Source: Escherichia phage UE-S5b
Sequence record: PP301341.1
Direction: 5' to 3' (one strand)
Length of the DNA: 64,000 bases
In this document: positions 8,772 through 27,789 of the stretch, piece by piece
Position numbering within the stretch: position 1 is the stretch's first letter
Layout of the letters: each line of letters starts with the position of its first letter
Translations under genes and position numbers: made by a program
Notes under the pieces: model-generated
What the model was told of the DNA's origin: nothing
Databases searched by the model: none
What the model saw: only the letters and a program-made list of their open reading frames with translations

Positions 8772-9974
8772 ATGTTAAACTATAACGCTCCAATTGACGG
8801 TCAGAAATCTAGCATTGATGGTGCTGGTTCCGATCAGATGAATACCTTTTACTGGCTGAAGAAAGCTATTATTCAGTCTCGTAAAGACCAGTACTTCATG
8901 CCACTGGCTAACACCATTAACATGCCTAAGAACTATGGTAAGACTGTTAAGGTGTATGAGTACGTTCCACTGCTCGACGATAAGAACATTAACGACCAGG
9001 GCATTGATGCTAATGGTGCTACCATCGTTAATGGTAACCTGTATGGTTCTTCTAAAGACGTAGGTAACATCACTTCCAAACTGCCTCTGCTGACAGAGAA
9101 TGGTGGTCGTGTTAACCGTGTAGGCTTTACCCGTCTGTCTCGTGAAGGCTCCATCCATAAGTTCGGTTTCTTCTACGAATTTACCCAAGAGTCCCTGGAC
9201 TTTGATTCTGATGATCAACTGAAAGAACACCTGTCTCGCGAACTGATGAACGGTGCTGTACAGTTGACTGAAGCTGTTCTCCAGAAAGACCTGCTTGCTG
9301 CTGCTGGTACTGTATTGTATGCAGGTGCTGCTACTTCTGATGCTACCATCACCGGTGAAGGTTCTACTCCGTCTGTAGTTTCTTATAAGAACCTGATGCG
9401 TCTTGACCAGATTCTTACTGAGAACCGTACCCCGACTCAGACTACTATTATCACTGGTTCTAAACTGACTGATACCAAAGTACTTGGTGGTACTCGTGTA
9501 ATGTACGTTGGTTCTGAATTGGTTCCAGAACTGAAAGCGATGAAAGATCTGTTCGGTAACAAAGCATTCATCGAAATTCAGCACTATGCTGATGCCGGTA
9601 CTCTGATGAATGGTGAAGTTGGTTGTATCGACAAGTTCCGTATTATCCAGGTTCCTGAGATGCTGCATTGGGCAGGTGCTGGTGCTCAGGCTACTTCTAA
9701 CCCAGGCTATCGTTCTACTATGGTTGGTGGTCAGGAACACTACGACGTATTCCCGATGCTGGTAGTTGGTGATGACTCCTTCTCTACCATTGGCTTCCAG
9801 ACTGATGGTAAGTCTGTTAAGTTCTCCATCATGACTAAGATGCCTGGTAAAGAAACTGCTGACCGTAATGACCCGTATGGTGAAACTGGCTTCAGTTCTA
9901 TCAAGTGGTACTACGGTATCCTGGTTAAACGCCCAGAACGTCTGGCTATGATTAAGACTGTTGCTCCTCTGTAA
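8772..9974 (+). CDS. major capsid protein (N4 gp56-like)
   Basis: 400 aa, strongly biased high-expression codon usage, followed by a strong terminator, size and position match N4 major coat protein. Confidence 0.75.
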
Positions 9975-9990: not shown

Positions 9991-10016
9991 AAGGGGGACT
10001 AATGTCCCCCTCTTAA
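9991..10016 (+). terminator. rho-independent terminator after capsid gene
   Basis: Hairpin AAGGGGGAC-TAAT-GTCCCCCTCTT directly after the stop codon. Confidence 0.6.
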
Positions 10017-10759: not shown

Positions 10760-11596
10760 ATGTCTTGTTCTGCTGAGGTAGAAGCTAACCGACTCCTAGA
10801 AGAGTTAACTAAGGGTGATGACTTTACCCTTCCTGATGTTGATATGACTGGCCCCGAATGGGATATCCCTGGTGGGGATGCTTCCCCAATCTTTGGTGCT
10901 ATTGATAAAATATCCAATGAATCACTCACTACCCGTGAAGTTGGTGGTAGTGGTACGTTTGATGCATTAATGGAATCTGCACACAATCATCTGAAAGCTG
11001 AGTTTAAAGCTAACCGTATTACCGGTGGTGAATATACCAAAGCATACATTGCTATGATGGAATCTTGCATGAGCAATGCTGTTCAGTTCTTACTTGGTCG
11101 TGACCAGGCATACTGGGCTGCTGCTATGGCACAGATTCAGGCAGTTACTGCTCGTGTTCAACTGGCAACGTCTAAAGCACAGTTTGTGCTGGCTAAGATT
11201 CAGGCACTGTCTGCTAAGAGTGAGTATGCTCTTACTAAGATGAAGATTGCTACTGAGTCTGAAACATACTGTGCTGCATTGTTTAATGTTAGTCAGATGT
11301 TACCTCAACAGCTTAAATTGCTTACTGAGCAGACTGAAGCACAACGTGCACAGACACTTGATACCCGTAGTGATGGAGCTACTGTTACTGGTTCTGTAGG
11401 TAAACAGAAAGAGTTGTACTCACAACAGATTACTTCTTATCAACGTGATGCAGAGGTTAAAGCATCTAAGCTGTTTACTGATGCATGGATTACTCAGAAG
11501 ACTATTGATGAAGGCTTGAATCCACCAAATGGTTTCACTAACGCAAGTATTGACACCATTCTGACCAAGCTGAAGTCTAACAACGGGCTGAACTAA
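10760..11596 (+). CDS. virion structural protein (N4 gp54-like position)
   Basis: ORF 10754-11596; second ATG at 10760 has better spacing to AAGAGGAA. Gln/Ala-rich predicted helical protein. Confidence 0.5.
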
Positions 11597-11597: not shown

Positions 11598-14252
11598 ATG
11601 GGCTTATTCAGTGGGAAGACCAAAGTATACGTAGCATCCTCTGTCTATAACATGGCAGGGGATATACATAAACGCCCTAACTATATGAAGACTGTAGTTA
11701 TAGGTAATATTGTTTCCAATACAGGATTCACTATGGCAGATACTATCTCTGATAGTTATCTGAATGGGCCAGGTATTCGTATGCGACTGTTCTCCAGCTG
11801 GAGTAAGAACCACTATGATTCAGTAGTTGGTATGGCTGGTTCTTCATTGGGTGTATTGGCTAAGATTGACCCTACCGTTATAGAGGGTCAAATTACACCC
11901 CCTGCTGGTGAATCAGTCTATGTTCAGGCAGCAGAGATTGGCTTTGCTGACTTTGAGCAATGGTGTGACCAGTATCTTTATGAGAATGCTCCAAGTCGAA
12001 TCATGGAACGATTCGACATAGATATTGATGAAGATACTAATGAAATCACTATGACCTCCTTAGATGGGGGCTCTACTATTACATTCACACCTACTAACTT
12101 TGAACCAGGTGCTTTATATCTCTATGCTGATTACTCATTCTATAAGNCCCCTTCTACTAATCCTCCGGTAGTAGGACCGACTACTGTCTATGATGATGAG
12201 GATGACTTACCTTCCACTTTGTTATGGACTACCGTCTCAAGTGATACGACGGCTAACACAACCAATCTTACTAAGACTATACATACTCATTCTGTTTACT
12301 CTGATGGCAGACCGGATGAAGACAGTACTGTCACAGAACCAAGTGTGGATAACTGGAACTCTTACGTTAAAGTTTATCGTAGAGGATTCACTGAGAAACC
12401 TGATGATGTGACTGTAGTTGTATCTGACAGGGTAATGACTCATACAAAATTTGGTGAGATTCAATCCAGTACTTCTGTAACTACTAATGTGGTTGATATA
12501 GGTGGAGGTGTTACTCGTACAGATACAATCACTACAACCACAGAGACACTGGTTCGTAAGTACTCATCCCAGACTACCCGTACTGATACCGAGATGACTG
12601 CTGTTAGTACACCTAAAATGCTTATTTATAAGCAGAACTCCGGTAACGTTGCACTGGATTCTTTGTTCGAGACTGAAGCTACTGATAACCGATTCTACCC
12701 ATTCATTCCAATCAGAAATGATAAGCAATGGGTAGAGAATGACCCAATCTACCCACACTGTAAGAAAGCCCTTTATAAAGCTACTGGTGGAAAAATTGAT
12801 AAAGTAGTCACAGAGCTTAAGAAGAATGATGACATAGGTGATATTCAGTACATCTATGGTTCATTTGGTGTATCCCTTAATACCCCCGAGGATAGTGCTA
12901 AGGAATACATCTATCGTTTCTTTCAGATGGCTACTGAAGCATTCCCACCTGACCCAACCTACCCAACACTGGAAGCAGTGATTGCAGGCTATCAGGCAGC
13001 AAATGATGCAGTTGACGCATATGTGGAATGGTGGAACAGGACTGAAGGGCATATTATTGGAACACCTCCACCACTGCCAGAATACCCAGTTATACCTAAG
13101 CGAGAGTTTAGGGTGCATAGTAATAAGCAGTACAAGTACGACATGACTATTGGCTGGAACTATGTATCTGAAACTACCCATTCAGGTCAAGCATGGTCTG
13201 GTGCTAAGCAGGGGCAACTTCGAGCCAGGTATGCAGGAGATATAACCCTTACTCGTAAGAACATAAGGACAGCTTCCAACTCCGGTTCTGCTAAGAAACT
13301 TGAGGTAACATACACATTCTATTCAATGCAGGAATACGAGTTGCTTTGGCAGGATGGTAATAATACCTATCGTAAACTTAGAGTACTGGGTCTAAATCAC
13401 AACAACAGGGTATATAAAAATAAGTCAGTGCACATTGATGTTGCCGAAGCAATGGGTGATGCAGAGGAGAGTGGATTCATTATTCCACTGCACACCAATA
13501 TCTACCGTTCAATGCCACTGGTTCGTAGCACTCAGTTATCCACTGCCTGCTCCTACTTAGTGATGAACTCATATAAGAAGGTTAAGCAGAAGTGGTATCA
13601 GACTGGGGCATTTAAAATTGTTGTTGTAGTGGTAGCTGTAGTTGTCTCTGTATTTACAGCAGGTGCTGGTGGTGCAGGTATACTTGGGGCATACGGTGCA
13701 GTCGGTGCATCACTTGGTTTTGTTGGATTAGCTGCTGTAATAGTTGGTGCTGTAGCAAACGCCATAGCTGCAATGATTCTGGTATCCATTATTACTAAAG
13801 TATCTACTTCACTGTTCGGTGATAAGCTAGGTTTTATCATTGCTGCTATTGCCTCAATGGTAGCCATGAACGTTGGTACTGCTTTGTCTACTGGTACATC
13901 CTTATCCTCTTTAGCTGGTGAAATGATGAATGCTCAAAACATCATGCAACTTACCAGTTCAGTGGGTAATGGCATTAGTCAGTATATTAATGCATCCACG
14001 GCTGCTACTATTCAGAAAGCAGAGAGTGTAATGCAGCAGTACAATACTGATATGATGGCAATCAATAAGCAGTATGAAGAGATGTTCGGTACTGCTGGAC
14101 AGGGTGTGATTGACCCCATGCAATTCGTGTCAATGGAGTCGTTGGATTCATTCTTGTCACGTACTCTCATGACTGGTTCAGATATAGCTGACTTGTCTTT
14201 AGACATGGTTGGCAACTACTCTGATATGACTCTTAATACTGACCTTGTTTAA
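11598..14252 (+). CDS. large virion protein with about 100 aa Gly/Ala-rich hydrophobic (multi-TM-like) segment; candidate ejection/channel protein (N4 gp53-like position)
   Basis: 884 aa; segment VVVVVAVVVSVFTAGAGGAGILGAYGAVGASLGFVGLAAVIVGAVANAIAAMILVSII... near residues 660-760. Confidence 0.6.
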   Translation: MGLFSGKTKVYVASSVYNMAGDIHKRPNYMKTVVIGNIVSNTGFTMADTISDSYLNGPGIRMRLFSSWSKNHYDSVVGMAGSSLGVLAKIDPTVIEGQITPPAGESVYVQAAEIGFADFEQWCDQYLYENAPSRIMERFDIDIDEDTNEITMTSLDGGSTITFTPTNFEPGALYLYADYSFYKXPSTNPPVVGPTTVYDDEDDLPSTLLWTTVSSDTTANTTNLTKTIHTHSVYSDGRPDEDSTVTEPSVDNWNSYVKVYRRGFTEKPDDVTVVVSDRVMTHTKFGEIQSSTSVTTNVVDIGGGVTRTDTITTTTETLVRKYSSQTTRTDTEMTAVSTPKMLIYKQNSGNVALDSLFETEATDNRFYPFIPIRNDKQWVENDPIYPHCKKALYKATGGKIDKVVTELKKNDDIGDIQYIYGSFGVSLNTPEDSAKEYIYRFFQMATEAFPPDPTYPTLEAVIAGYQAANDAVDAYVEWWNRTEGHIIGTPPPLPEYPVIPKREFRVHSNKQYKYDMTIGWNYVSETTHSGQAWSGAKQGQLRARYAGDITLTRKNIRTASNSGSAKKLEVTYTFYSMQEYELLWQDGNNTYRKLRVLGLNHNNRVYKNKSVHIDVAEAMGDAEESGFIIPLHTNIYRSMPLVRSTQLSTACSYLVMNSYKKVKQKWYQTGAFKIVVVVVAVVVSVFTAGAGGAGILGAYGAVGASLGFVGLAAVIVGAVANAIAAMILVSIITKVSTSLFGDKLGFIIAAIASMVAMNVGTALSTGTSLSSLAGEMMNAQNIMQLTSSVGNGISQYINASTAATIQKAESVMQQYNTDMMAINKQYEEMFGTAGQGVIDPMQFVSMESLDSFLSRTLMTGSDIADLSLDMVGNYSDMTLNTDLV

Positions 14253-14709
14253 CAGGAGAATCCCCATGGATTTGTCATTCTTAACAGGCAACCCAACTCC
14301 ACAGCCAGCTGCTATGTCTTGGATGTCTAATAACAATCAGAACTTTAATACCCCGGCTATGAACTATAACCCAGGTGCAACTATTGGTATGGGGGCAAAT
14401 ACAGGAGTAGCCTCCCCTACTTCTTTCCTGTCTGGTTCAGCTGATCAGTTGGGATTGAATGTACCTACCTTCCAATTAGGACTGGGTGCACTTGGTTCAT
14501 TAGCTAATATCTACAGTGGTTTCCAGGCTAATAAGTTAGCCAAAGACCAGTTGAACTTTACTAAGAGTGTTACTAACACTAACCTGAATAACCAGATTAA
14601 GTCTTATAACACTGCACTGGAAGATCGTGCTCGTAGCCGTGCTACAGCAGAGAACCGTGACCAGTCTACTGCTGATGCTTATATTGCAGCTAATAAATTA
14701 ACCCGTTAA
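14245..14709 (+). CDS. virion protein, hypothetical (N4 gp52-like position)
   Basis: 154 aa ORF overlapping the previous stop by 8 nt; Asn/Gly/Ser-rich. Confidence 0.5.
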   Translation: MFNRRIPMDLSFLTGNPTPQPAAMSWMSNNNQNFNTPAMNYNPGATIGMGANTGVASPTSFLSGSADQLGLNVPTFQLGLGALGSLANIYSGFQANKLAKDQLNFTKSVTNTNLNNQIKSYNTALEDRARSRATAENRDQSTADAYIAANKLTR

Positions 14710-14721: not shown

Positions 14722-16686
14722 ATGGCTCAAATTACATGGCGTAATGTTGATGCACCTAACTTCTCTGGAGTAGGTGACAGCATTCGCACATTTGGTAGCA
14801 TGATAGGTAACGCCACCTCCGGCTTAAGTGATGCACTGGGTAATTTCCAGAACGCTGCCAAGCAGGAGGCTGGCAATGCCGTCATGATGAATGCTATGCA
14901 GTATCAAGATCCTACTGAGTACCGTAATGCTTTGGCATCAGGTGCACTGTTTCAGGGGGTTGACCCTTCATTGGTAAACCAGCGTACTCTCCAGAATCTG
15001 GATGAGCGAGCAGGTACACTGCTGACTCAACAAGGACAGCAGGGAACCAATGACTACATTGCATATCGCTTTGGTCGCTTAAAGGATATTAACTCAGCAC
15101 TAGATAATGCTTCTCCGGCTATTCGTTTATTGTCTGAGGCTTATCAGTCTGGTGACCAGAATCGTATTAATACTGCATTGGGTCAGACTCGTGAGGCATT
15201 ATCTACGCTCCCAGCTGACCAACAGTTAGAATTGTTAGGTAGTTTACAAGGACAGGGTAGTGCTGCTATTAATCAGGCGAGCAATCGTTTTGATTTGGGT
15301 GTTGCTCAACGTAATGATGCCGATAGTCAGGCAGCTATGGGTGTAATGGCACAGATTACCCGTGGTGCTGAGAACCCTAATGATGCCCGTCTGTTGGCAG
15401 AAGCATACAGTAAGAACCTGTCTCCAGTTGCACAGGCACGCTTGCAGGGATTACTGGCTAATGCTTACCCGGGTGTTTACGGTAATGGTGTAGGTGCTAC
15501 GTCTGCTCCTGGTACTGCTGGTACTCGTCAGGGTTCACCTTACGATGTTACTTATCAGTTTGCTGGTACATCTACTCCTATTACTCAAATGAGTATTGGT
15601 GATGTAATTAAACACCAGGATGGTATGAAATCGAACCAGGGTGCTTCCCCTGTTGGTGCATTCCAGATTAACCAAGCTACCTTGAAAGACTTTGCCCCCA
15701 AAGTTCTTGGTTCAGATTGGCAGAACCAACCTCTTTCCCCTGAGAACCAGGAGAAGATTGGTAAGGCTATTTTTGAGGCTCGTAAGAATGGTAACCTTAA
15801 AGATACCTGGGCTGCTCTTCCTAACTCTACCCCAGGTGCTTATAAGGATATGACTTGGGAACAGATTAAACCTGTTATTGCCCAAGCTGAAGTAGGGGCT
15901 GACCCATTCGCTCTGATTCAGAATAATCAAGGAAATCAGGCAGTATCCACTCTGGCTCAGGGTATGATTGGTACTCGTTCTATGCAGGATAATACCGGTA
16001 GTCTTAATACTGACTTCCTTGGTACTGTCACTGATAATACTCCAGTAGGTGAAATTGCTAACCGTCTATTAGATGGTGACTTTAAAGGTGCTGACCGTAA
16101 CTGGGTACTGAACCGACTAACTGATATTTCTCAACGTGGAAATATGTCACCAGCTATGGCTGCTGCTGTTATGCAGCGTGCACAGACTGGTGTACCGGAA
16201 GGTTACATTAGCCGTGCTATTGATGCAGTTAACCCATTCATTACCAACGAAGCCGGTAATGGTATGCGTCTTAATGACCGTTTGGTAGATCAGTTAATTG
16301 AGGGTGTACAACGTGGTGAACCACTGGAAGGCAGTGTGCGTAATCTTGGACGTGCTCAAGCTATGCAGAACATTCAGGCAGCACAGACTGCTTATGATGC
16401 TGCTGTAGCTGCACTGACAAATACTCAGAACAAGATTAACACCGGACAAACAGGACTTACTGCATTGTTACCTGCACGTCAGGAAGCTGTTACTAAAGCT
16501 GCTGCAATGCTTCAAGCTGCACAAGCCCAAGTGCAAGCAGACCCAGCTAACCTGGCTCCAAGAGGTTTTCGGTCACAGGNTAGTGTGGACAGAGCACGAG
16601 CCAAGGAAGATGAAGAACGTGCTGCACGTTANCTACGTCAGGCACANGGTTTGCCTGAGTATATGCAACCNAGACAAAATCGGTAA
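14722..16686 (+). CDS. internal virion protein with possible lytic transglycosylase-like motif (N4 gp51-like position)
   Basis: 654 aa; segment GMKSNQGASPVGAFQINQATLKDF is reminiscent of the SLT signature (S..AGA.GLMQ..T); 3' end contains several N. Confidence 0.55.
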   Translation: MAQITWRNVDAPNFSGVGDSIRTFGSMIGNATSGLSDALGNFQNAAKQEAGNAVMMNAMQYQDPTEYRNALASGALFQGVDPSLVNQRTLQNLDERAGTLLTQQGQQGTNDYIAYRFGRLKDINSALDNASPAIRLLSEAYQSGDQNRINTALGQTREALSTLPADQQLELLGSLQGQGSAAINQASNRFDLGVAQRNDADSQAAMGVMAQITRGAENPNDARLLAEAYSKNLSPVAQARLQGLLANAYPGVYGNGVGATSAPGTAGTRQGSPYDVTYQFAGTSTPITQMSIGDVIKHQDGMKSNQGASPVGAFQINQATLKDFAPKVLGSDWQNQPLSPENQEKIGKAIFEARKNGNLKDTWAALPNSTPGAYKDMTWEQIKPVIAQAEVGADPFALIQNNQGNQAVSTLAQGMIGTRSMQDNTGSLNTDFLGTVTDNTPVGEIANRLLDGDFKGADRNWVLNRLTDISQRGNMSPAMAAAVMQRAQTGVPEGYISRAIDAVNPFITNEAGNGMRLNDRLVDQLIEGVQRGEPLEGSVRNLGRAQAMQNIQAAQTAYDAAVAALTNTQNKINTGQTGLTALLPARQEAVTKAAAMLQAAQAQVQADPANLAPRGFRSQXSVDRARAKEDEERAARXLRQAXGLPEYMQXRQNR

Positions 16687-16693
16687 TACTAAN

Positions 16694-16717
16694 AAAAGCC
16701 CTTCGGGGCTTTTTTCT
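16694..16717 (+). terminator. rho-independent terminator upstream of vRNAP gene
   Basis: AAGCCC-TTCG-GGGCTT followed by TTTTTCTT. Confidence 0.7.
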
Positions 16718-16762: not shown

Positions 16763-19700
16763 TTGAACAGGAAACATGCTATGTCAACATTTGACCGTCT
16801 GGCAGGTTTCGCAGACAGCATCACTAATGCTAAGCAAGTCGATGTCTCTACTGCAACCTCTCAGAAGCAAGCTGCACAAGGGCAAAGCCCTTCCCAATTA
16901 ACCCCAGAGAATGCTTACAATCTCCAAACTGGTCGTGTAGGTAATCTTGGAATCGGTGCATTCGAACCAGGTTCACTTCAGGCAGATTTCACGCAAGCCT
17001 CCCCATTAGAAATTCTTAATAAATACGGTAATGAGCAAGGTCTACAGATTCTTAATAGCCGGGCTAATGCTGCTGATGCTGTACGTCAGGACTTATCTAA
17101 ACAACGTACTAACGCAGAAGCATTTGGTGATACTCTTTCTGGTGTTGGTCTTGGTGTTGCTAATACCCTTGGGGGCATTGCTGCTCTTGGCACAGGTCTG
17201 GTCAATGATAATGCCGGGGCATCCATTGCTTCCGGTATGGATTGGCTGAATGAAGGGGTACACAATCTACAGTCTGATGCTCTGAATGCTACCCGTAAGG
17301 TTGTTCAGAATCAGAACCAGATTTCTGCACAAAAGAACCAGAAACTCTACGAAGAAGACATTAAAAATGGAGAGAGCAGTTTGGTTGCCTCTCTGTCTCG
17401 TATTGGTCGTGATGCTTTTGATTCTGTTGCTAATACGCTTGATAATGGTATGGCTGCTACTGATGGGCTGAGTGAAGGTGTTGGTTCTCTCTTTACCGGT
17501 GGTCCATTAATTCGTGGTGTATCTGCACTCGGTAAAGTAATGGTAGGTGGTGATAAAGCTGTTAAGGGTATTACCTTAGCTGCTGAGTTAGGTTCACGTC
17601 CTGCACAGGTTGCATTGTCTGCTGGTCGTGTTGCTGCACCTGCTATTGCAATTGGTGGTATGGAAGCTGGTGGTGCATACCAACAGACTGCTTCCGAAAT
17701 CATGAAGATGTCCCATCAAGAATTGGCAAGTAAGTCTCCTGTTTATCAACAGCATATCGCTGATGGTTTATCTCCTGATGAAGCACGTCGCCAAACTGCA
17801 TCTGAAACGGGTATCATTGCTGCTGGCTTAACTGCTCCGGTTGCTGCTGCTACTGGTCCTCTGGTATCCAAATTTGAACTTAACCCACTTAAGGTAGGTT
17901 CGCTGGCTGGTGCTGGTTCTAACATGCTACGTGAAACAGTAGAAGAAGGTATTCAGTCTGGTACAAGTCAGTTTGCACAGAACAAGGCAATTCAGGGTAA
18001 TGTAGATGCTAAGCGTGATTTGCTTAAAGGTGTCGGTGAGCAAGCAGGTCTTGGTGCACTCTACGGCTTCGGTAGTGCTGGTGTTGCTCAGGCTCCAGGT
18101 ACAACTGTTAAAGCTGTTGGTGCTTCTGCTGGGCCTGCTTTACGTACTACTCTGGCTGGTGCTTCTCTGGTTGGTAGTGCATTAGCAAAAGCTGCCTCTC
18201 CTATTACTAACATCCTGGTTCAGCGTGGCGAAGAAGTTGCTAAGCGTAATGAACAAGCTTCCCCTGTATCTGATGCTACGGTTAATGCTGCTGCACAAGA
18301 AGCTACTGCTCAAGCAGAACAAGCACAAGCAACTGTACAAGAAGCAGTAGATGCAATGGATATTTCTCCTGAAGAGAAAGCTGCTGCTACTCAGTATGCT
18401 GCTGACTTAACTCAGGCAATGAAATTTGACCCAGTAGAACTGGAACAAGCTAACCCAGCAATCCGTGAAGCTGTTTCTGGTTCCACTAACCGTGTTGAAG
18501 CTATTCAGAAGATGGCTGACCTGGTTAATACTGCCGAAGACCCTAACGTTCAAATGGAAGCTGCAATCCAGATGTATGACAACATCATGTCTATGGATAG
18601 CTTCATTAACCGTGATCCTGGTGCTTTAGCTAATCTGGAACAGGGTTCTCCTGCTGCTAATATTGTTGACCAGTTCTCCGGCCTGATGGCTAACGTTCAG
18701 AATACACCAAAGGTACTTCGTGCATTCCGTGCCATCCATTCTATGATTCAGGAACAGGCTGAAGCAGGTAAACTGAAAGCTACCGAAGAAGCTAACCAAG
18801 CCCAAGCAAACAACATTGCTATGGCTGCTGATATGTCTCCAGAAGTACTGGATGCAGACTCAGTGAACATGGTTCTGAAACATGCAAGTGAAGGTAAGAT
18901 TACACTGGGGAATCGTCAGCGTGCTGCCCTGCAATCTGCTGCTGCTCTATTGCAAGGAGCACGAGAATTTGACGCTAAAGCAGAAGAACTAGGCTTACGT
19001 CCTCAAGACATTGTTAGTAAACAGATTAAAACCGACGAGTCTCGTTCTAATGAAGGTCAGTACTCTGCGTTGCAACATGCTAAACGCATTCGTTCTGCGT
19101 ACAACTCTGGTAACTTCGATTTGGCTTCCGCTTACCTCGACGACTTTATGAAGTTCGCCCAGCACATGCAGAATAAGGTCGGAGCGTTGAATGAGCATCT
19201 GATTTCTGGGAATGCGGATAAGAATAAGTCTGTCCATTATCAGGCTCTTACTCCCTCCCGTGAATGGGTACGTAGTCGTACTGGTCTTGGTGTCAATCCG
19301 TATGATACCAAGTCGGTTAAGTTTGCCCAGCAAGTAGGACTGGAGGCCAAAACCGTAGCTGATATTGCTAACGCACTTGCTACGGCTTACCCGGAGCTTA
19401 ATGTTTCTCATGTGAAGGTTACTCCATTAGATTCACGTCTGGACAAGCCTGCTGCCCAGGTAGTTAAAGAGTTCCGTCAAGGTGGTCTTGATGCCACTCA
19501 GTCTCAACAGACCAATGAACCAGTGAATCAGGTTGATGAAACTCCTGCACCAGCGCAAGAGACTACTACTACTGTACAGCCTAAAGCTAAACCAGTGGTA
19601 GAAAATAAGACTGTTCCTGTTAAAGAGGCTAGTTCAAAAGCAGAAGAAGTCTCTACTACTAAGTCTGAAACAGTAGATGCTACCCTCACCAATGAGGATA

Positions 19701-22700
19701 CCACTCAAAAAGTAGCTGAAACTAAAACGGAAATGGAAACAGTTTTCCCTGTCTATAACAATGACAAGACACCGAACCAGTTCCTGAAATCATTTACCCT
19801 GCCGGAAGAACCTAAGTCTCGCACCATTGGTTCTGAATCCCCTTTGACTGATATTAAGCAAGCACTGTCTTCTACTGCACGCTTTGAAGCATTCACTCAA
19901 AAAGAAAATAACGCTCTCACAAGTGATGTGATTAAGCGTTATCAGGACTTAATGGGCTTTGGTGAAACTCTGAAGACTACTCTGTCTGATCGTCTGGCTA
20001 AGTTTCTTGCTAATAAGAACGTTGGTAAACGCTTTGCAGAAGGCACAGAGGCTAACCGTTGGGTAGGTGGTAAGTTACTTAATATCGTAGAGAAAGACGG
20101 AGACACCTTTAAGTTCAATGACCAGTTGTTAGAGACTGCTGTACTTGCTGGTCTGCAATGGCGACTGACTGCTACACAGAATGCTGCTGTTAAAGACATG
20201 AAAGATGTAGCTGCTATTACTGGAGTAGAAGCATCCTTGTTACCTGAAGGTATCCTGGCTGAATTTGAGAATGCTCAGACTCTGGTTGAAGCTACTAACT
20301 CACTGGCTCAAAAGATTGAATCTTACTGGGGATTGAATCGTAATCCTAATGCACCACTGGGTTATACCAAAGGTATTCCAATGGCAATGGCTACAGAGAT
20401 TCTGTCTTCTCTCATTGAGATGGGTGAAGTTAAAGAGTCTATGCTTGATGTGTCTGAGATTGACCCAGACTCTAATAAGACCGTCGGTCTGTATACCATT
20501 GAGAAGCTGGATGATAACGATGCCATTAACAAGTTCCCTACTGCTATCGAGGAAGCTGTTCTCGTAGAACCAGAAGAGAAAATGTACTTTGGTGATGATA
20601 TTCCTTCCGTGGCTCAAACTCAGTTACGTAACCCTGCTGTTAAGAATACCCCAGAGCAGAAAGCTGCTCTTAAAGCAGAACAGGCTACCGAGTTCCGTGT
20701 ACACATGCCGATGGTTAACTTCTATGAAGCATTAGGTCGTGACAACATTCTGGAACTGATGGGTGCTGGTACTCTTAATCCTGAACTGCTGAACGTGAAC
20801 ACTGCTAAGTCACTGGAGGGTAAAAACCTGTCAGTGTCTATGGCATATGATTCCCTGTTCGGTGTAATCAACCAGTTACAGGAACAGGAGAATGGTCTGG
20901 ATACGCCTATTCACTATGGTTACAACATGACCCGTGTAGGTCGTATGCAGATGTTAGGTAAGAACAACCCACAGTCCAGCAAGCTGGTTCGTGAAGCAAT
21001 TCTGCCAACCTTCTCTACTATCGACTTAAGTAATGAAAACAGTCAGACGTTCTCTGATTTCCAGTTAGGTCTGTCTCAGGCATTAGGTATCAAGGTTCAT
21101 AATATGTCCCGTGAAGCTATGTCTGAAAAACTGACCAAAGCTCTGGAAGGTAATTTGAAACCTGCTGTTGATATGATGGTTGAGTTTGATAAGTCCGGGC
21201 ACTTACCAGCCGATGCAGTAGATATTCTTAAGACATCTCTGGGTGGTGATAAATCATTCGTAGCTCTTATGGCTCTTATGGAGTATGCCCGTTACCTGAA
21301 CAGTGATGACCGTGCCAACTTTAATACCCCACTGTACGTTGAAGCCGATGGTGTAACCAACGGACCAATCAACGCAATGGTATTAATGACTGGTGGTAAG
21401 TTCACTTCAGACTGGATTAAGAATACTGCTAAAGGTGGTCTGTTCTTCGGTAAAGCTGGTAAGACTATGAATGAACATCGTTCACAGGATGACAGTGTTG
21501 ACCTGTATGAAGCATCTACCAATGGTCTGCAACAAGCACTTAATGAGTTACGTACTACTTACCGTAACAACGTTCCGGTTATGAACCAAATGAATCATCT
21601 TCAGAAGTTAATGGACCTGTTTATTAAAGACTTTAACCTGAATGAAGACGGTACTCTGGACCTGAAACGTGGTATCGCTAAAAACCCACTGACCATTACC
21701 ATCTATGGTTCAGGTGCTCGTGGTATTGCTGGCAAGATGGTTAGTGCAATTACTGACACCATCTATGAACGATTCAGTGATGTTCTGCAAGCTCGTGCTG
21801 CTGACCCTAGTATTTCCCCAGCTATGGCAATGTTTGGTAAGGAGGCTGCGTCTGAGGCTGATGCTCAGGCTATGCTGGATACTTTCCTTACTTCTATGGA
21901 AGCACTGACTGGTAATGTTCCAGTTATGCGTAAAGGTGAATTGTCTATTCAACAGGTAGAAGGTGCTCTGACTGGTAAGTTAGACCCTCAGAAGTTTACC
22001 GTATCGGGTAATGCCCTGAAGAACTTACAAGAGAACATGCTTCACCTGTTCGTTGAACCAATGCGTACTGGTATCCGGAATACTGTTGGGGAAGGTCTGA
22101 TGCATTCTACTGAGAACTTGCAGAAGGCTACCCAGATTCAGTCTTTGGTTCTACAAGACATGTTCCAACAAGCAGTACAGGCTAAGCTGGCAGAAAAAGA
22201 AAAAGACCCAACCTGGAAGAAGGGTGATTTCTTAACACAGAAAGAACTGAATGAAATTCAGGAATCATTGTCTCCACTGGCTCCAATGATTGAGACTGGT
22301 TCACAGACTTTCTATATTGCTGGTAGTGAGAATACTGATGTTGCTAACCAGGTACTGGCTACCAACTTAGATGACCGTATGCGTGTGCCAATGAGCATCT
22401 ATGCTCCTTCTCAGGCAGGCGTTGCAGGTATTCCATTTATGACCATTGGCACTGGTGATGGCATGATGATGCAGACCCTTTCTACTATGAAAGGTGCTCC
22501 GAAGAATACCCTGAAAATCTTTGATGGTATGAACATTGGTATCAACAACATCACTGATGCAAGTCGTAAAGCTAACGAGGCTGTATACACTTCCTGGCAG
22601 GGTAACCCTATCAAGAATGTTTATGAGTCTTTTACTAAGTTCATGAAGAACGTAGACTTCAGCAAACTATCTGATGAAACCAAACAGGCTATCGCTAAAT

Positions 22701-25700
22701 CTGCTCTGGAATATGACCAGCGTGAAGGTGCTACCGATGACCTGTTACGTGTTGGTGCTGAACAGATTGAACGTAACCTGCGTAATATTGCTCTGGGTGT
22801 AGATATTCGTCACAAAGTAATGAACCAGGTACAGACTACTGTTGACCAGATGGCTGCTGTTGGTGCTCCTTATGTGAACAACGGTAAAATCTCTCTGGAA
22901 GGTCTGACCGTAGACCAACAAGTAGCTAAGCTAAATGAACTGTTCGATGCTGAATTAAACAAACGTCGTGATGCAGTACGTGCTGCTAAAGTAGAACCAG
23001 TGAAAGAAGTGCCAGCAATGGAACAGGTTGGTCGTGTACTGAAGTCTGGTGTACGCCTACTGTCTAATACTGCTATCTCTAAGCTGGCTAAAGAGATGTC
23101 TCCGGAACAGCAAGCAGTACTGAAAGAAGTACAGAAATCCCTTGCTGCTAAAGACTATAAGGTTGTTTACGGTACACCTTCCCAACTGGATGCTTATGCT
23201 ATTGAGAAGAATATTACTCGCCCAGCACCAGAAGATATTGAAGCTGCTGAAGCTGGTAATGCGTATGGTTGGACTAACTTTGAAGATAAGACCATCTACT
23301 TAGTTACCCCTTCCTTAGAGACTCTGGTTCATGAATTGGTGCATGCTTCTACTTTTGAATCTGTACTGGCTCACTATGAGGGTACTCCTAATGAAGCGGT
23401 CCAGAACATTGAAGACCTGATGAACCAGTTCCGTGCTCTGGATGTTAAGGATGAATCCCCGGCAGTTCGGGAAGCATATGCAGATGCTCTTAATACTATT
23501 AACGGTCATTTATCTAATGGCTTTATTGAGCCAGCAATGGCTAAAGCTGCTGCACTGAATGAGTACATGGCATGGGGTTTAACCAACCGTGAACTGATTA
23601 GTAAGCAGAAGAAAACCACTGCACTTAAGACTATGGTTCAGGCTGTATATGAAGCAATTAAACGTCTGGTATTCGGGCGTAAGAAAGCACCAGCTAATGC
23701 AGATGATATGTTCTCTGGCTTACTGTTTAACTCGTCCGTAGTTATGCGTGGGCAAGCTCCTACTGCTGCTGTAGCCAAAGATACTACTCTGTTCCATAAC
23801 AAAACGTATGGTGACAATACTCGTCTGGAAGAGCTAGGGAAAACCTTCGATAAACTGATTACTGACTACATTGGTTCTGAACCAGTACAGCAAGTAATTC
23901 GTAAAGGTAAGTTCTCTGATGCAGTGGTTAATGCGACTAAAGTAACTCGTGATGTTCAGGCTCATGGCTTCACTATGAATATGCAGGAACAACGTCTCTT
24001 TACTAACATTGTTGCTGCTCTGGCTACTGAGGCTGCTATTAATCCTGCTGCTCTGGCTCGTGCGCAGGAATACTACACACATGTTACTAAGAACCTGACC
24101 GTTGAGTCATTCATGNCTGACCCAGATAGTACTAACCCTGCTGACCGTTACTATGCACAGCAGAAGTTCGATACCATCATGGGTGCTAACAACATTGAGT
24201 TTGATTCACAAGGTCGTTCCTCCTTACTGCCTACCTTTATTGGTCTGGCGATGGTAAGTGAAGAGGTACGTAAAGTGCTGGCTGATATTCCAGTTATGAA
24301 AGTAGACAAGAAATCTGGCAATACCGCTGATGCAATGCTGACTAACATCGGTACTGCTGCAATGGCTAGTCTGAATGCTCGTGTAGCAGGAGATACTAAA
24401 GCTACCAACGTACAGGAAGGTATGGATGCACTGGCTCAGACAATCATGCAGACCAGTCTTAATGCACAATCCTTCTATGATTCCGTTGCTACTCCTACGG
24501 GTAATGCTATTGATCGTGCTAACCAGTATCTGGTGGACTCTATTGATGTACTGTCTACCCGTGCTTTAGAAGGTGCTCGTGAAGTTGCAGCTAATACCAA
24601 GAACCCGTTGGTTAAAGGTGCTGCCCATGCTGCACAATTAATAGCTGCTATTGCTACAGAGAAGAATGGTGCAATCGTAGCCGAAGGTGTTATGGCTGCA
24701 ATGAACCAGGGTAAGGTATGGCAACCTTTCCATGACCTGGTTAATGACTTAACTGGTCGTACTAAGAGCAATGCTTCTGTATATGATTTGATTAAAGCAG
24801 TGCGTGCACAGGTACAGGCTGACCGTCAACAGTTCCGTGAACATCTGCCCACCACTATTGCATCTAAGTTCAGCCGTAAGCTTACTAATGATGAGTGGAA
24901 AGCAATGCATACCGGTATGGGTAAAACCGACTTAGCTGTTCTGCGTGACACTATGTCTCTGGGTGAAATTCGTGACTTGCTGACTGACCAAAAGATTGTT
25001 GACCGTGAAGTGAATAAGCTGGAAGCAGATTTGCAGAAACAAGCAGGACGTAACTGGCCTTTGATTAGCCGTAAATCTAAGCAACTGGCTCAGTACATGA
25101 TTAATGGCACAGTTGGTAATAACTTGCTGCGTAATGCTACTGCAATCTCTCGTATGCTGGGTGAACGACAGGCTGCACGTTCTACTGTAGACGTAGCTCA
25201 ACTGGATAAACTGATTACTCTGTATGCACTGGAAGCAATGAGTAAGACTGACCGTGAGATGTTATCTTCACTGGCTCAATCAGAGATTGAAGGCATGGAC
25301 TTCGCTACTTCTTATCTGGTTGGTCAGCGTAAAGATGAAATGGCTAAAGCCAAATCTGATACTCGTGCAACTCTGAACCAGTACAAAGGGTATATTCCTG
25401 GTGAGACTAAACAGGGTGTTAACTTGATTGTTGCTGAAGATAGTCAGTTTGCTGATTTGATTGAGAAGTCCTATGTACGTCTGGGTACTTATCAGGGTAG
25501 CTCTGCTAATCGTGGTCCAGCACGTAGCTACTACTTTGCACCGGTACAGGCACAGGCTCCATTCTCGCAAGGTATCTTACAGAACGTTCGCAATACTGCT
25601 GGTGGTGTAGACCTTGGTACAGGCTTTACGATGGGTACAATGGTAGCTGGTCGTATCACTGACAAGCCTTCTGTAGACCGTATCACTAAAGCACTGGCTC

Positions 25701-27133
25701 GCGGTGAACGTGGTAATGAACCACTGCTGCCTGTATATGATGATAAAGGCAATGTGGTTGCTTATGAGCAATCTATTGACCCTAACATGCTGAAGCACAT
25801 TGAGGGTGAGAACCATCTCGCTCGTGCAATCGGTGTATGGCGTGGTCGTCAGGTAGAGGAAGCTAAGGCTCAGCGTTTCAACGATATGCTGATTGAGAAC
25901 CTGCATAGCATGTATAAAAACGACATTAAAATGTCTGCCTCTAACAAGTCACAGTACGTTAACCTTCTTGGTTCTAAACTGGACCCAGTAACTGCTGATG
26001 CCCTTAAGCTGATGAACAGTGAAACTCGTCAGAAAGCAGAAAGTCTGTTTGGTCCTGGTGAGTTGTGGGTACGTCGTGACATGCTGAATGATGCACTGGG
26101 CTATCGTGCAGCTTCCGTAGGTGATGCCTGGTCTGGCAATTCTCGTTGGTCACCAGAAACACTGGATACCTTCAAGAAAGCTATGTTGGGTGTATTCGGC
26201 AACCGTGCTTATAAGTATGTAATGGGTGGTGAGAACCTGGTTCAAAACTTAGTTAAAGAAGCCAAAACTCTGATTGTAGTTAAGTCAGTAGTTGTTCCTG
26301 CTGTTAACTTCCTGGCTAACCTTTACCAGATGGTTGGTCGTGGTGTACCTGTTAAGAACATTGCTAAGAGCATTCCACAGAAGACTGCTGAGATTAACCA
26401 GTACCTGAAATCTCGTCTGCGTCAGGTAGATGCAGAAGCAGANTTACGTGCAGCTACTAACCCGAACCAGATTCGTAAGCTTAAGGCTGAAATTCAGTCC
26501 ATCACTGATAGTCATAAGCGTATGAGTATCTGGCCTCTGTTAGAAGCTGGTGAGTTTTCTTCAATTGCAGATGCTGGTATTGGACGAGATGACATCCTGA
26601 TTACTGAAGGTAAACTTCACGAATACATGGATAAACTGGCTGATAAGTTACCTAAGTCTGTACGTAATGCTGGACGTTATGCCCTTATCACCAAGGATAC
26701 TGCTTTATTCCAGGGTATCCAGAAGACGGTTGAGTACTCTGACTTTATTGCTAAAGCAATCATCTATGATGATTTGACTCAGCGTAAAGGTAAGACTCGT
26801 GAAGAAGCACTTGGACGTGTAACGGAAGAGTTCATTAACTATGACCGTCTGCCTGGTCGCTTCCGTGGGTATATGGAAAGTGTTGGTCTTATGTGGTTCT
26901 ATAACTTTAAGATTCGTTCTGCAAAAATTGCAGTATCCATGATTCGTAACAACCCGGTACACGCAGCTATGGCTATGTTGGCTCCAACTCCTACCATGTT
27001 TGGTAATGTTGGTTTACCTATTCAGGACAACATCTTCAGTATTGCTGCACAAGGCAATCTCGGTTACTCCTGGGGCTTCGGTCAGGGACTTCGTGCCCAT
27101 AACCTTAACCCTTGGCTCAATCTAGCTAACTAA
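16763..27133 (+). CDS. virion-encapsidated RNA polymerase (vRNAP, N4 gp50-like)
   Basis: Single 3456 aa ORF, the hallmark giant protein of N4-like phages; last gene of the late operon; contains T7-RNAP-like motif B-like segment (PLTITIYGSG). Three isolated N. Confidence 0.9.
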   Translation: MNRKHAMSTFDRLAGFADSITNAKQVDVSTATSQKQAAQGQSPSQLTPENAYNLQTGRVGNLGIGAFEPGSLQADFTQASPLEILNKYGNEQGLQILNSRANAADAVRQDLSKQRTNAEAFGDTLSGVGLGVANTLGGIAALGTGLVNDNAGASIASGMDWLNEGVHNLQSDALNATRKVVQNQNQISAQKNQKLYEEDIKNGESSLVASLSRIGRDAFDSVANTLDNGMAATDGLSEGVGSLFTGGPLIRGVSALGKVMVGGDKAVKGITLAAELGSRPAQVALSAGRVAAPAIAIGGMEAGGAYQQTASEIMKMSHQELASKSPVYQQHIADGLSPDEARRQTASETGIIAAGLTAPVAAATGPLVSKFELNPLKVGSLAGAGSNMLRETVEEGIQSGTSQFAQNKAIQGNVDAKRDLLKGVGEQAGLGALYGFGSAGVAQAPGTTVKAVGASAGPALRTTLAGASLVGSALAKAASPITNILVQRGEEVAKRNEQASPVSDATVNAAAQEATAQAEQAQATVQEAVDAMDISPEEKAAATQYAADLTQAMKFDPVELEQANPAIREAVSGSTNRVEAIQKMADLVNTAEDPNVQMEAAIQMYDNIMSMDSFINRDPGALANLEQGSPAANIVDQFSGLMANVQNTPKVLRAFRAIHSMIQEQAEAGKLKATEEANQAQANNIAMAADMSPEVLDADSVNMVLKHASEGKITLGNRQRAALQSAAALLQGAREFDAKAEELGLRPQDIVSKQIKTDESRSNEGQYSALQHAKRIRSAYNSGNFDLASAYLDDFMKFAQHMQNKVGALNEHLISGNADKNKSVHYQALTPSREWVRSRTGLGVNPYDTKSVKFAQQVGLEAKTVADIANALATAYPELNVSHVKVTPLDSRLDKPAAQVVKEFRQGGLDATQSQQTNEPVNQVDETPAPAQETTTTVQPKAKPVVENKTVPVKEASSKAEEVSTTKSETVDATLTNEDTTQKVAETKTEMETVFPVYNNDKTPNQFLKSFTLPEEPKSRTIGSESPLTDIKQALSSTARFEAFTQKENNALTSDVIKRYQDLMGFGETLKTTLSDRLAKFLANKNVGKRFAEGTEANRWVGGKLLNIVEKDGDTFKFNDQLLETAVLAGLQWRLTATQNAAVKDMKDVAAITGVEASLLPEGILAEFENAQTLVEATNSLAQKIESYWGLNRNPNAPLGYTKGIPMAMATEILSSLIEMGEVKESMLDVSEIDPDSNKTVGLYTIEKLDDNDAINKFPTAIEEAVLVEPEEKMYFGDDIPSVAQTQLRNPAVKNTPEQKAALKAEQATEFRVHMPMVNFYEALGRDNILELMGAGTLNPELLNVNTAKSLEGKNLSVSMAYDSLFGVINQLQEQENGLDTPIHYGYNMTRVGRMQMLGKNNPQSSKLVREAILPTFSTIDLSNENSQTFSDFQLGLSQALGIKVHNMSREAMSEKLTKALEGNLKPAVDMMVEFDKSGHLPADAVDILKTSLGGDKSFVALMALMEYARYLNSDDRANFNTPLYVEADGVTNGPINAMVLMTGGKFTSDWIKNTAKGGLFFGKAGKTMNEHRSQDDSVDLYEASTNGLQQALNELRTTYRNNVPVMNQMNHLQKLMDLFIKDFNLNEDGTLDLKRGIAKNPLTITIYGSGARGIAGKMVSAITDTIYERFSDVLQARAADPSISPAMAMFGKEAASEADAQAMLDTFLTSMEALTGNVPVMRKGELSIQQVEGALTGKLDPQKFTVSGNALKNLQENMLHLFVEPMRTGIRNTVGEGLMHSTENLQKATQIQSLVLQDMFQQAVQAKLAEKEKDPTWKKGDFLTQKELNEIQESLSPLAPMIETGSQTFYIAGSENTDVANQVLATNLDDRMRVPMSIYAPSQAGVAGIPFMTIGTGDGMMMQTLSTMKGAPKNTLKIFDGMNIGINNITDASRKANEAVYTSWQGNPIKNVYESFTKFMKNVDFSKLSDETKQAIAKSALEYDQREGATDDLLRVGAEQIERNLRNIALGVDIRHKVMNQVQTTVDQMAAVGAPYVNNGKISLEGLTVDQQVAKLNELFDAELNKRRDAVRAAKVEPVKEVPAMEQVGRVLKSGVRLLSNTAISKLAKEMSPEQQAVLKEVQKSLAAKDYKVVYGTPSQLDAYAIEKNITRPAPEDIEAAEAGNAYGWTNFEDKTIYLVTPSLETLVHELVHASTFESVLAHYEGTPNEAVQNIEDLMNQFRALDVKDESPAVREAYADALNTINGHLSNGFIEPAMAKAAALNEYMAWGLTNRELISKQKKTTALKTMVQAVYEAIKRLVFGRKKAPANADDMFSGLLFNSSVVMRGQAPTAAVAKDTTLFHNKTYGDNTRLEELGKTFDKLITDYIGSEPVQQVIRKGKFSDAVVNATKVTRDVQAHGFTMNMQEQRLFTNIVAALATEAAINPAALARAQEYYTHVTKNLTVESFMXDPDSTNPADRYYAQQKFDTIMGANNIEFDSQGRSSLLPTFIGLAMVSEEVRKVLADIPVMKVDKKSGNTADAMLTNIGTAAMASLNARVAGDTKATNVQEGMDALAQTIMQTSLNAQSFYDSVATPTGNAIDRANQYLVDSIDVLSTRALEGAREVAANTKNPLVKGAAHAAQLIAAIATEKNGAIVAEGVMAAMNQGKVWQPFHDLVNDLTGRTKSNASVYDLIKAVRAQVQADRQQFREHLPTTIASKFSRKLTNDEWKAMHTGMGKTDLAVLRDTMSLGEIRDLLTDQKIVDREVNKLEADLQKQAGRNWPLISRKSKQLAQYMINGTVGNNLLRNATAISRMLGERQAARSTVDVAQLDKLITLYALEAMSKTDREMLSSLAQSEIEGMDFATSYLVGQRKDEMAKAKSDTRATLNQYKGYIPGETKQGVNLIVAEDSQFADLIEKSYVRLGTYQGSSANRGPARSYYFAPVQAQAPFSQGILQNVRNTAGGVDLGTGFTMGTMVAGRITDKPSVDRITKALARGERGNEPLLPVYDDKGNVVAYEQSIDPNMLKHIEGENHLARAIGVWRGRQVEEAKAQRFNDMLIENLHSMYKNDIKMSASNKSQYVNLLGSKLDPVTADALKLMNSETRQKAESLFGPGELWVRRDMLNDALGYRAASVGDAWSGNSRWSPETLDTFKKAMLGVFGNRAYKYVMGGENLVQNLVKEAKTLIVVKSVVVPAVNFLANLYQMVGRGVPVKNIAKSIPQKTAEINQYLKSRLRQVDAEAXLRAATNPNQIRKLKAEIQSITDSHKRMSIWPLLEAGEFSSIADAGIGRDDILITEGKLHEYMDKLADKLPKSVRNAGRYALITKDTALFQGIQKTVEYSDFIAKAIIYDDLTQRKGKTREEALGRVTEEFINYDRLPGRFRGYMESVGLMWFYNFKIRSAKIAVSMIRNNPVHAAMAMLAPTPTMFGNVGLPIQDNIFSIAAQGNLGYSWGFGQGLRAHNLNPWLNLAN

Positions 27134-27135
27134 AT

Positions 27136-27671: not shown

Positions 27672-27686
27672 AACTACCTCAAATGA

Positions 27687-27720: not shown

Positions 27721-27789
27721 GCTTCATGAGCCTTACCACATGTCGGGTAGTTCAGTACCTTTCGGTAAAAACTACCTTACACTTTTGAA

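Follow-up and report, generated by a model that had tools for sequence, protein, structure and literature searches.

Tail plugs of N4 and DEV

The basic picture of the tail plug of N4-like phages is already known, since the family was solved by cryo-EM in 2025-2026 and described for both N4 and DEV. A study by Zheng et al. (Structure, 2025) is reportedly also concerned with the N4 gp53 tail plug. In the cryo-EM structures, N4 gp53 and DEV gp74 are single-copy tail plugs (PDB 9YFT, 9ZE4; PMC13434306, PMC12892993). The N4 structure paper (Bellis et al., Nat Commun 2026; PMC13434306) places one gp53 per virion at the tip of the tail, with a 12:6:1 mismatch; there, six short helices from residues 29-56 and 670-716 make up a 'hydrophobic knot' that corks the dodecameric tail tube. 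The N4 model covers residues 9-724 (724 corresponds to residue 728 of the protein studied here), and the last ~160 residues are unresolved in the tail lumen (PMC13434306). The plug is anchored via domains D9-D10 of the sheath/receptor-binding protein gp65; empty particles still show plug density, and a re-seating of the tethered plug was proposed by the authors (PMC13434306). The envelope channel was attributed to gp52, gp51 and the N-terminus of gp50 (PMC13434306), with gp52, which shows bilayer conductance, acting as the outer-membrane pore in N4 and DEV (PMC13434306, PMC11445570), and gp51 as a T7 gp15-like periplasmic tunnel in N4 (PMC13434306).

In DEV, the plug gp74 is anchored by a receptor-binding fibre, gp56-gp55-gp54, which recognises LptD, and deletion of gp56 led to DNA leakage (PMC12892993). 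According to the N4 paper, DEV gp74 is devoid of the 'beta-feather' (PMC13434306).

A gp53-type gene and its neighbours in UE-S5b

The window analysed here is a stretch of 64,000 nucleotides from Escherichia phage UE-S5b (PP301341.1), and the gene under study occupies nt 11598..14252 on the plus strand, with an ATG start and 884 codons plus stop; an ambiguous base at nt 12147 gives an X at aa 184. We put the probability at roughly 87% that its product is the plug of the tail in an N4-like phage of the Gamaleyavirus type (Schitoviridae, Enquatrovirinae). The protein was found to belong to the N4 gp53/DEV gp74 plug family (PHROG 2220, E=0, residues 1-883), and in the PDB it matched N4 Gp53 over its full length (9yft_FA, E=0, residues 1-883) as well as the DEV 'N4 gp53-like protein' (9ze4_M). 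No family was obtained when Pfam was searched with the protein, even at E<=0.1. It is colinear with N4 gp53 (884 vs 885 aa) at 55% identity, and the two share the knot segments, the beta-feather region, a conserved C-terminal tail and identical gene neighbours. DEV gp74 (9ZE4 chain M), in contrast, has 740 aa and about 13% identity over the structural alignment. Shigella phage Moo19 is the closest structurally studied relative; its gp70 ('similar to N4 gp53', 96 kDa) is ~70% identical overall, and its tail is of the same sheath-less, tailspike-bearing type as that of UE-S5b, with a weak, unmodelled plug density at the tube tip and no atomic model (PMC11654681).

The neighbouring genes were found in the order MCP-gp55-gp54-gp53-gp52-gp51-gp50 of N4, those of the gp54, gp52, gp51 and gp50 types lying on the plus strand like the plug gene, which has gp54-type and gp52-type neighbours. 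Upstream lies the gp54-type tail tube gene (10760..11596), which is 66% identical to N4 gp54 from nt 10760 and whose stop codon is 1 nt ahead of the plug ATG. Its product matched the Moo19 tail tube (9d80_C, 8.6e-149), N4 Gp54 (9lc0/9yf4/9yft, 3.2e-124) and DEV gp75 (5.4e-19); the C-terminal ~100 aa is the portion that still matches DEV gp75 and B2 gp34, and in DEV the corresponding part of gp75 makes up the distal tube. Downstream are the genes of a gp52-type small ejection protein (14266..14709; 9yf4_OA, 1.8e-45; DEV gp73 8vxq_A, 7.9e-4), a gp51-type ejection protein (14722..16686; PDB 11mn_A '66 kDa protein', 1.8e-129; ~50% identical to N4 gp51) and a gp50-type virion RNA polymerase (16781..27133). 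The true start of gp52 is the ATG at 14266, with an AGGAG Shine-Dalgarno sequence, and not the TTG at 14245; N4 gp52 aligns from 14266. The gp50 gene is an ORF of 3456 aa; in phage UE-S5a, which is 99.9% identical, it is annotated as RNA polymerase, and its start coordinate was taken from there. No promoter or terminator of note was seen inside the plug gene.

The gene had been assigned to a block of internal virion proteins, a placement that did not hold, as gp53 and gp54 are parts of the tail, plug and tube respectively. That the product is a virion protein agrees with mass spectrometry, which detected orthologs in the virions of N4 (PMC13434306), Moo19 (gp70; PMC11654681) and LIT1 (gp74; PMC3715699); in the UE-S5a study 54 of the 89 proteins were called particle-associated, so that survey is not specific. 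The order around the plug gene is also maintained in a distant short-form family member and in a Rhizobium phage. The Rhizobium phage match that spans two features is a boundary overlap only. In the record of Shigella phage pSb-1 the plug gene is broken, and we considered whether this was a natural domain split; this was rejected, as the break is overlapping and frameshift-like, and the gp52 homolog is also split in the same record, which points to an artefact of sequence quality.

A conserved hydrophobic module

A Gly/Ala/Val-rich hydrophobic segment of about 100 aa had been noticed in the protein, and it was recovered at aa 674-770 (nt 13617-13907, 97 aa; IVVVVVAVVVSVFTAGAGGAGILGAYGAVGASLGFVGLAAVIVGAVANAIAAMILVSIITKVSTSLFGDKLGFIIAAIASMVAMNVGTALSTGTSLS), where G+A+V make up 53% of the residues vs 20% in the remainder. 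The mean Kyte-Doolittle value of this stretch is 1.71; in 2000 shuffles of the whole protein the best 97-aa window reached 0.45 +/- 0.14 (maximum 1.09), which puts the natural stretch about 9 SD above the shuffles. K734, D742 and K743 are the only charged residues inside it. The earlier prediction of several membrane helices holds as an expectation from sequence alone, since simple scales gave four non-overlapping TM-like 19-mers (674-692, 695-713, 714-732 and 744-762). Their summed dG on the Hessa scale lies between -0.7 and +2.6 kcal/mol, the median for the protein being 19, and both their length and their hydrophobicity would suffice to cross a bilayer.

Few parts of the family are as well conserved as the hydrophobic module. 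In 260 members (728-991 aa long) the most hydrophobic 90-aa window always starts 219 +/- 5 aa before the C-terminus, with a Kyte-Doolittle value of 1.71 +/- 0.14, a distance that is independent of protein length. Because its position and hydrophobicity are constant across these members, the stretch is neither drift nor artefact. The UE-S5b protein has both the charge-poor module ~220 aa from its C-terminus and the conserved N-terminal segment, and over aa 674-720 charged residues make up a mean fraction of 0.02 in the family. Conservation is highest in two blocks, aa 1-30 and 601-750, which take in both knot segments and their flanks, and it is much lower in the exposed middle of the protein; this pattern is in keeping with a plug-tube interface that stays fixed while the outer face varies.

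Alignment with N4 divides the stretch into two halves. The first (aa 674-720, nt 13617..13757) is equivalent to N4 knot residues 670-716, the C-terminal numbering being offset by +4, and is 68% identical to N4 and 96% to Moo19. The second (aa 721-770, nt 13758..13907), which carries the TM-like windows 714-732 and 744-762, is 78% identical to N4 and was modelled by AF2 with pLDDT <50. The other knot segment, the N-terminal helices at aa 29-56 (nt 11682..11765), aligns to N4 29-56 in the same numbering with 71% identity (93% to Moo19), and AF2 placed helices at 29-40 and 46-55 with pLDDT 72-83. Behind the stretch follows a polar/amphipathic helical tail (aa 771-884, nt 13908..14249), equivalent to the lumenal part unresolved in N4, for which AF2 helices 779-830, 849-856 and 860-879 are of low confidence. 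Within this tail the family-invariant motif ESxDxFLxRTLMTGSDIA was mapped to aa 847-865 (nt 14136-14192); among 74 sequences E847, R855, T856 and G860 are invariant and F852 is present in at least 90%, and the motif is recognisable in DEV gp74 too.

The 'beta-feather' (aa 211-334, nt 12228..12599) was modelled as four very long antiparallel strands (211-234, 241-269, 272-302 and 305-334) with pLDDT ~80-91. It is the least conserved part of the protein (37% identity to N4), being absent or shortened in family members of ~730-850 aa. Weak Foldseek matches to aerolysin-type beta-pore-forming toxins (E 2e-4, TM <0.1) and to maturation proteins of ssRNA phages (E ~1e-4, TM <0.15) were rejected as evidence for a pore, because they mirror the long beta-hairpins of the feather. 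The globular core of the model agrees in fold with a solved plug. The pLDDT values of the individual parts come from an MSA-based AF2 model, a single-sequence run having been discarded at pLDDT 32; for aa 688-884 pLDDT is <50, so that helices are predicted there and the knot is not independently reproduced. Covariation (MI-APC) between aa 20-60 and 665-730 gave 0 of the 200 top pairs against 1.6 expected, with indels of the beta-feather dominating the signal and the knot too conserved to be informative. The hydrophobic segment is helical and not a beta-rich core.

The initial annotation had gone further and proposed an envelope-spanning conduit, that is, a multi-helix membrane protein that would itself form the passage for the virion RNA polymerase and DNA. 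The three to four TM-like segments and the adjoining ejection genes would suit such a role, and homologs are entered as 'membrane protein' in some GenBank records and as 'TMhelix containing protein' in BFVD. However, the N4 ortholog is a single-copy cork at the tail tip that is kept on empty particles, and channel activity and tunnel structures belong to gp52 and gp51, both of which are encoded here. No oligomeric channel fold was found among the structural matches, and we infer that a single molecule, with no more than four hydrophobic helices, could not line a ~35 A channel. A likeness to the T7 ejection proteins was likewise unsupported: when a 74-sequence profile was compared by hhalign with T7 gp14, gp15, gp16 (first 1302 aa) and gp7.3, the probabilities were 0.1-0.8%, a weak test with single sequences on the T7 side. 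T7 gp14/gp15/gp16 share with this system their place in a podophage ejection apparatus, but many copies of them are stored in the core of the capsid, whereas gp53 occurs once, at the tip of the tail, and the true counterparts of the T7 proteins here are gp52, gp51 and gp50. The conduit is scarcely credible, since the structures of N4 and DEV contradict it; by the N4 evidence, it does hold that the protein lies on the ejection path and controls ejection.

It is also conceivable that the stretch serves mainly during assembly, a reading compatible with the plug. It would then act either as an SRP-type signal-anchor that places gp53 in the inner membrane of the infected cell or by binding to a chaperone, and gp53 would be held in this way until it is enclosed by the tube. 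The first segment, IVVVVVAVVVSVF, appears hydrophobic enough for membrane targeting, a free greasy segment of 97 aa would presumably need shielding before assembly, and AF2 cannot fold the stretch in isolation. On the other hand, a chaperone gene was not identified next to the plug gene, and the tight coupling to gp54 through the 1-nt spacer suggests immediate co-assembly with the tube; we regard an assembly role as very unlikely.

Proposed plugging and release in a tail with tailspikes

The anchor of the plug sets UE-S5b apart from N4. When the N4 proteins were used in tblastn (E<=1e-3), no homologs of gp64 or gp65 were found in the window, in UE-S5a nt 1512-44166 (from the terminase to the virion RNA polymerase and beyond) or in Moo19, and UE-S5b has tailspikes, an endosialidase and a K5 lyase, instead. 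The N4 sheath is also lacking in G7C-type phages. The gating mechanism of N4, where gp65 serves as anchor, is thus not transferable unchanged. Candidate anchoring partners here are the endosialidase/gp66-like spike, the K5-lyase spike and a homolog of N4 gp63 at nt 3246-3527 of the window.

Homology, synteny, core fold, family-wide conservation and the fixed position of the hydrophobic module were all computed for the UE-S5b protein itself; copy number, location, the knot and retention on empty particles would carry over by analogy with the cryo-EM of N4 and DEV. On this basis, a single plug copy per virion would close the dodecameric gp54 tail tube at its distal end, with the large N-terminal part (about aa 7-665, the globular core and the four-strand beta-feather) outside the tube. 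Residues 29-56 and 674-720 would pack as a compact, almost charge-free helical knot wedged in the tube mouth, where it may retain the DNA and the lumenal ejection protein gp52, and the remaining hydrophobic stretch with the C-terminal tail (about 729-884) would reach up the lumen. Upon receptor binding by the adsorption apparatus, the presumed trigger of unplugging here, the plug would be displaced, and gp52, gp51 and gp50 could then exit and assemble the trans-envelope channel.

A second function after release may be imagined for the same plug, in which aa 674-884 would unfold upon the receptor signal and insert into the host outer membrane, anchoring the tail or priming the gp52 pore. The four TM-competent 19-mers and the Gly/Ala-rich composition are consistent with this, as are the ~160 lumenal residues, which lie directly ahead of gp52 and would have to exit first (PMC13434306), and the invariant residues of the C-terminal tail, which imply a specific role other than filling space. 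There is also a precedent in phi29 gp9, whose L-loops are kept as a bundle of helices inside the knob lumen and, on exit, form a hydrophobic barrel (PMC6542822); they resemble gp53 in one respect, as hydrophobic helices in the distal tail lumen that occlude a podophage tail before ejection (PMC6542822). The gp9 protein differs, however, in that six copies exit as a ~32 A helix barrel whereas gp53 is a single copy, and gp9 and gp53 have no relation in sequence or fold. Single-copy occurrence and the plug density of empty N4 particles, with its proposed tethering and re-seating, argue against insertion; the strong positional conservation is explained by a fixed contact between proteins no less well than by exposure to lipid, and what surrounds the first half of the segment in N4 virions is a protein tube and not lipid. 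We therefore consider membrane insertion after release unlikely. Its specific form, in which the triggered plug would be pulled or pushed out so that its Gly/Ala-rich helices enter the outer membrane, hold the tail in place and seed the gp52 pore, coupled in the sheath-less Gamaleyaviruses to a different trigger protein, is likewise assigned a low probability.

With the tail plug as the preferred reading, the practical value of these results lies in annotation, as the gene can now be named tail plug. It is a 'hypothetical protein' in all closest phage records among those listed, and more distant homologs are sometimes named 'membrane protein' or 'baseplate wedge protein'. Judging from the alignment, the start of Moo19 gp70 has probably been annotated 15 codons downstream of its true position.

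The probable plug gene and its hydrophobic stretch

The plug gene, a homolog of N4 gp53, was found exactly where the initial annotation had placed it, as an ATG-started open reading frame (ORF) of 884 aa at 11598..14252 on the + strand. A single ambiguous base, at 12147, leaves an X at residue 184. The 64 N bases of the window lie in small clusters (e.g. 3562-3628, 7440-7509, 8041-8062, 16580-16693, 28440-28588, 49047-49089 and 58248-58311), several of them where gp51 ends and the vRNAP gene begins. The N bases seem to be masked or polymorphic sites and not gaps in the assembly.

The Gly/Ala/Val-rich hydrophobic segment described earlier was present at aa 674-770 (97 residues), and its mean Kyte-Doolittle (KD) value of 1.71 exceeded that of all 2000 shuffles of the protein, in which the top 97-aa window reached 0.45 ± 0.14 on average and 1.09 at most. 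Gly, Ala and Val made up 53% of this segment vs 20% of the remaining protein, and the only charged residues within it were K734, D742 and K743. Several membrane helices had also been predicted; four non-overlapping 19-mers (674-692, 695-713, 714-732 and 744-762) were indeed of transmembrane (TM) grade on simple scales, the Hessa scale among them. The property was family-wide: 260 members of at least 700 aa were retrieved, and in every one the 90-aa window of highest hydrophobicity began 219 ± 5 aa before the C-terminus, independently of total protein length, with a KD of 1.71 ± 0.14, a G+A+V fraction of 0.49 and 3-4 TM-like 19-mers.

Identity, family and gene neighbourhood

The window belongs to an N4-like phage. 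The DNA of the plug gene is already in GenBank at 99.9% identity, as 'hypothetical protein' genes of Escherichia phages UE-S5a, UE-M3, UE-M6, PBM-2 and PBM-3, and UE-S5a is classified in Gamaleyavirus, Enquatrovirinae, Schitoviridae. The protein matched PHROG 2220 ('unknown function') over its full length (E=0), and a Pfam search with it returned no family. In the PDB, it matched 9YFT chain FA 'Gp53' over residues 1-883 (E=0) and 9ZE4 chain M 'N4 gp53-like protein', chiefly over residues 601-870. The feature is real and correctly located, yet already explained by the published structures of close homologs.

The comparison with N4 gp52-gp54 that had been suggested proved productive, as the protein aligned colinearly with N4 gp53 (NC_008720; 884 vs 885 aa) at 55% identity and 71% positives; identity to gp70 of Shigella phage Moo19 was about 70%. 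The major capsid protein gene (8772-9974) is followed by a gp55 homolog, the tail tube gene gp54 (10760-11596; Moo19 tube 9d80_C, 8.6e-149; N4 Gp54, 3.2e-124; Pseudomonas phage DEV gp75, 5.4e-19), the plug gene, gp52 (14266-14709), gp51 (14722-16686) and a vRNAP ORF of 3456 aa, which is the N4 order and confirms the orthology of the plug gene. A Rhizobium schitovirus shares this order, and so do the surroundings of a remote metagenomic family member of 742 aa. When 1.84 billion cluster representatives were searched with the profile, 2417 family members were retrieved at E≤1e-3, of which 1104 reached ≤1e-30. They fall into two size classes: a long one of ~890 aa and a shorter one of ~730-850 aa, in which part or all of profile positions ~190-335, the beta-feather, is missing. 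DEV gp74 was likewise reported to lack the feather (PMC13434306). All 13 strong matches in a BFVD structure search were podophage proteins, and those with names came from N4-like phages.

Only one base separates the tail tube stop codon from the plug ATG, and no strong Shine-Dalgarno sequence was seen on inspection of this start; such an arrangement would suit a protein produced in few copies along with the tube. An AGGAG lies seven bases 5' of the gp52 ATG at 14266. Together with the N4 alignment, this Shine-Dalgarno sequence places the real start of gp52 at ATG 14266; a mechanical ORF list (14245-14709) has it begin within the plug gene, at TTG 14245.

Plug, channel and anchor

The asymmetric N4 tail tip was solved by Bellis et al. 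(Nat Commun 2026; PMC13434306), with the bulk of gp53 outside the tail tube and a 12:6:1 tail-gating complex in which the plug core is bound by domains D9-D10 of gp65. In the same study, N4 gp52 and gp51 formed channels in planar bilayers, and gp51 was a decameric, T7 gp15-like tube. The results, figure legends and model of that paper assign the outer-membrane complex to gp52 and the periplasmic tunnel to gp51; its abstract reverses these roles (gp51 outer-membrane complex, gp52 tunnel), and the body version is adopted here. By alignment, N-terminal residues carry the same numbers in the window protein as in N4, and in the C-terminal third the window number is that of N4 plus 4. The knot, the hydrophobic helical cork of N4 gp53, maps to aa 29-56 and 674-720, so the cork itself would be roughly the first half of the hydrophobic stretch. 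The N4 model ends at the equivalent of aa 728, and aa 721-770 (including the TM-like window 744-762) with the polar tail 771-884 would be the equivalent of the N4 lumenal part outside the model.

We consider it highly probable (about 0.87) that the product is a tail plug, present once per virion, with its hydrophobic module as the cork closing the tail tube; receptor binding would release the plug, and the channel would then be built by gp52, gp51 and gp50 (vRNAP). The envelope-spanning ejection channel proposed in the initial annotation is contradicted on five counts: the single copy, the location, the retention on empty particles, the attribution of the channel to other proteins and the lack of similarity to ejection proteins. 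In the suggested comparison with T7 ejection proteins, the plug family profile showed no similarity to single sequences of T7 gp14, gp15, gp16 and gp7.3. By analogy with the L-loops of phi29 gp9, which are kept as a bundle of helices inside the knob before inserting into the membrane (PMC6542822), the knot and tail might enter the outer membrane once outside the tube, but this is unlikely given that there is one copy only and that the plug is seen re-seated in empty N4 particles. A use of the hydrophobic segment in membrane- or chaperone-assisted assembly would be compatible with the plug role and has a low probability too.

The plug orthologs of Moo19 (gp70, 96 kDa; PMC11654681) and LIT1 (gp74, 5 peptides; PMC3715699) were detected in virions, and the tip of the Moo19 tube held only weak, unmodelled density (PMC11654681). 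In N4 the plug is anchored by the sheath proteins gp64 and gp65, whereas the window phage lacks both homologs and has tailspikes instead. A tblastn search with N4 gp64 and gp65 gave no match in the window, in nt 1512-44166 of the near-identical UE-S5a (terminase through vRNAP) or in Moo19, and gp67, gp63, gp54, gp53, gp52 and gp51 were all matched; the N4 gating partner is therefore absent here. That unrelated proteins can take over the anchor role is known from DEV, where the plug gp74 is held by the gp56-gp55-gp54 receptor-binding fibre and deletion of gp56 yields DNA-leaking virions (PMC12892993).

At the gp66 position of UE-S5a, upstream of the window, an endosialidase is annotated. Window positions 1-2321 (+) encode a tailspike that combines a K5-lyase domain with a chaperone-like domain at its C-terminus (9vvr_A, E=0; 2x3h K5 lyase, 1.9e-279), which indicates a K5-capsule-specific host range. 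In UE-S5a this gene starts 33 nt before the window, so the window lacks its 5' end and the GTG listed as a start at 195 is an artefact of this truncation. An N4 gp63 homolog at 3246-3527 (+; 70% identity), a small conserved late protein, is a candidate tail-tip component; its annotation is inconsistent between relatives, with 'predicted tail length tape measure protein' for gp80 of Moo19 and 'tail needle protein gp26' for the UE-S5a homolog.

Conservation, fold and minor observations

Among 72 non-redundant homologs (<80% identity), the best-conserved blocks were aa 1-30 (mean top-residue frequency 0.76) and aa 601-750 (0.63-0.70), against 0.48 for aa 61-600; the hydrophobic stretch is thus conserved position by position, with G694, L696, G697, V702, G703, G707, G710, A713, G717, A720, N721, A724 and A725 at ≥90%. 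Such a pattern fits specific packing or an interface rather than mere greasiness. A further motif, ESxDxFLxRTLMTGSDIA (aa 847-865, nt 14136-14192; E847, R855, T856 and G860 invariant in the family), sits in the C-terminal tail, the part of N4 gp53 outside the model in the tail lumen, and can still be made out in DEV gp74.

With 74 sequences as input, AF2 gave a model (mean pLDDT 74) that was confident for residues 7-665, including four strands of 24-31 residues at 211-334, the beta-feather; residues 688-884 were modelled as helices only, at pLDDT below 50, which fits a segment folding only in the setting of the tube. The feather (12228-12599) was the least conserved region (37% identity to N4, 43% to Moo19). 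Foldseek gave weak matches for it among ssRNA-phage maturation proteins and aerolysin-type beta-pore-forming toxins (TM <0.15 despite E of 1e-3 to 4e-5), and these matches probably reflect only very long beta-hairpins in the model.

Moo19 gp70 (26849-29491, - strand) is annotated with 865 aa, but alignment to N4 and an MGLFS... start further upstream in the same frame indicate 880 aa; the deposited gene probably begins 15 codons too late. In Shigella phage pSb-1 (KF620435), the plug and gp52 genes are each annotated as two CDS, most likely through frameshift errors in the record, and both plug fragments are separate BFVD entries (V5UQE7 and V5UR75). Finally, GC-rich, terminator-like hairpins with T-runs, reported on the - strand and near-palindromic, were found at 9991-10012, directly after the capsid gene, and at 16694-16713, directly before the vRNAP gene; both may be attenuators that set late-operon stoichiometry.
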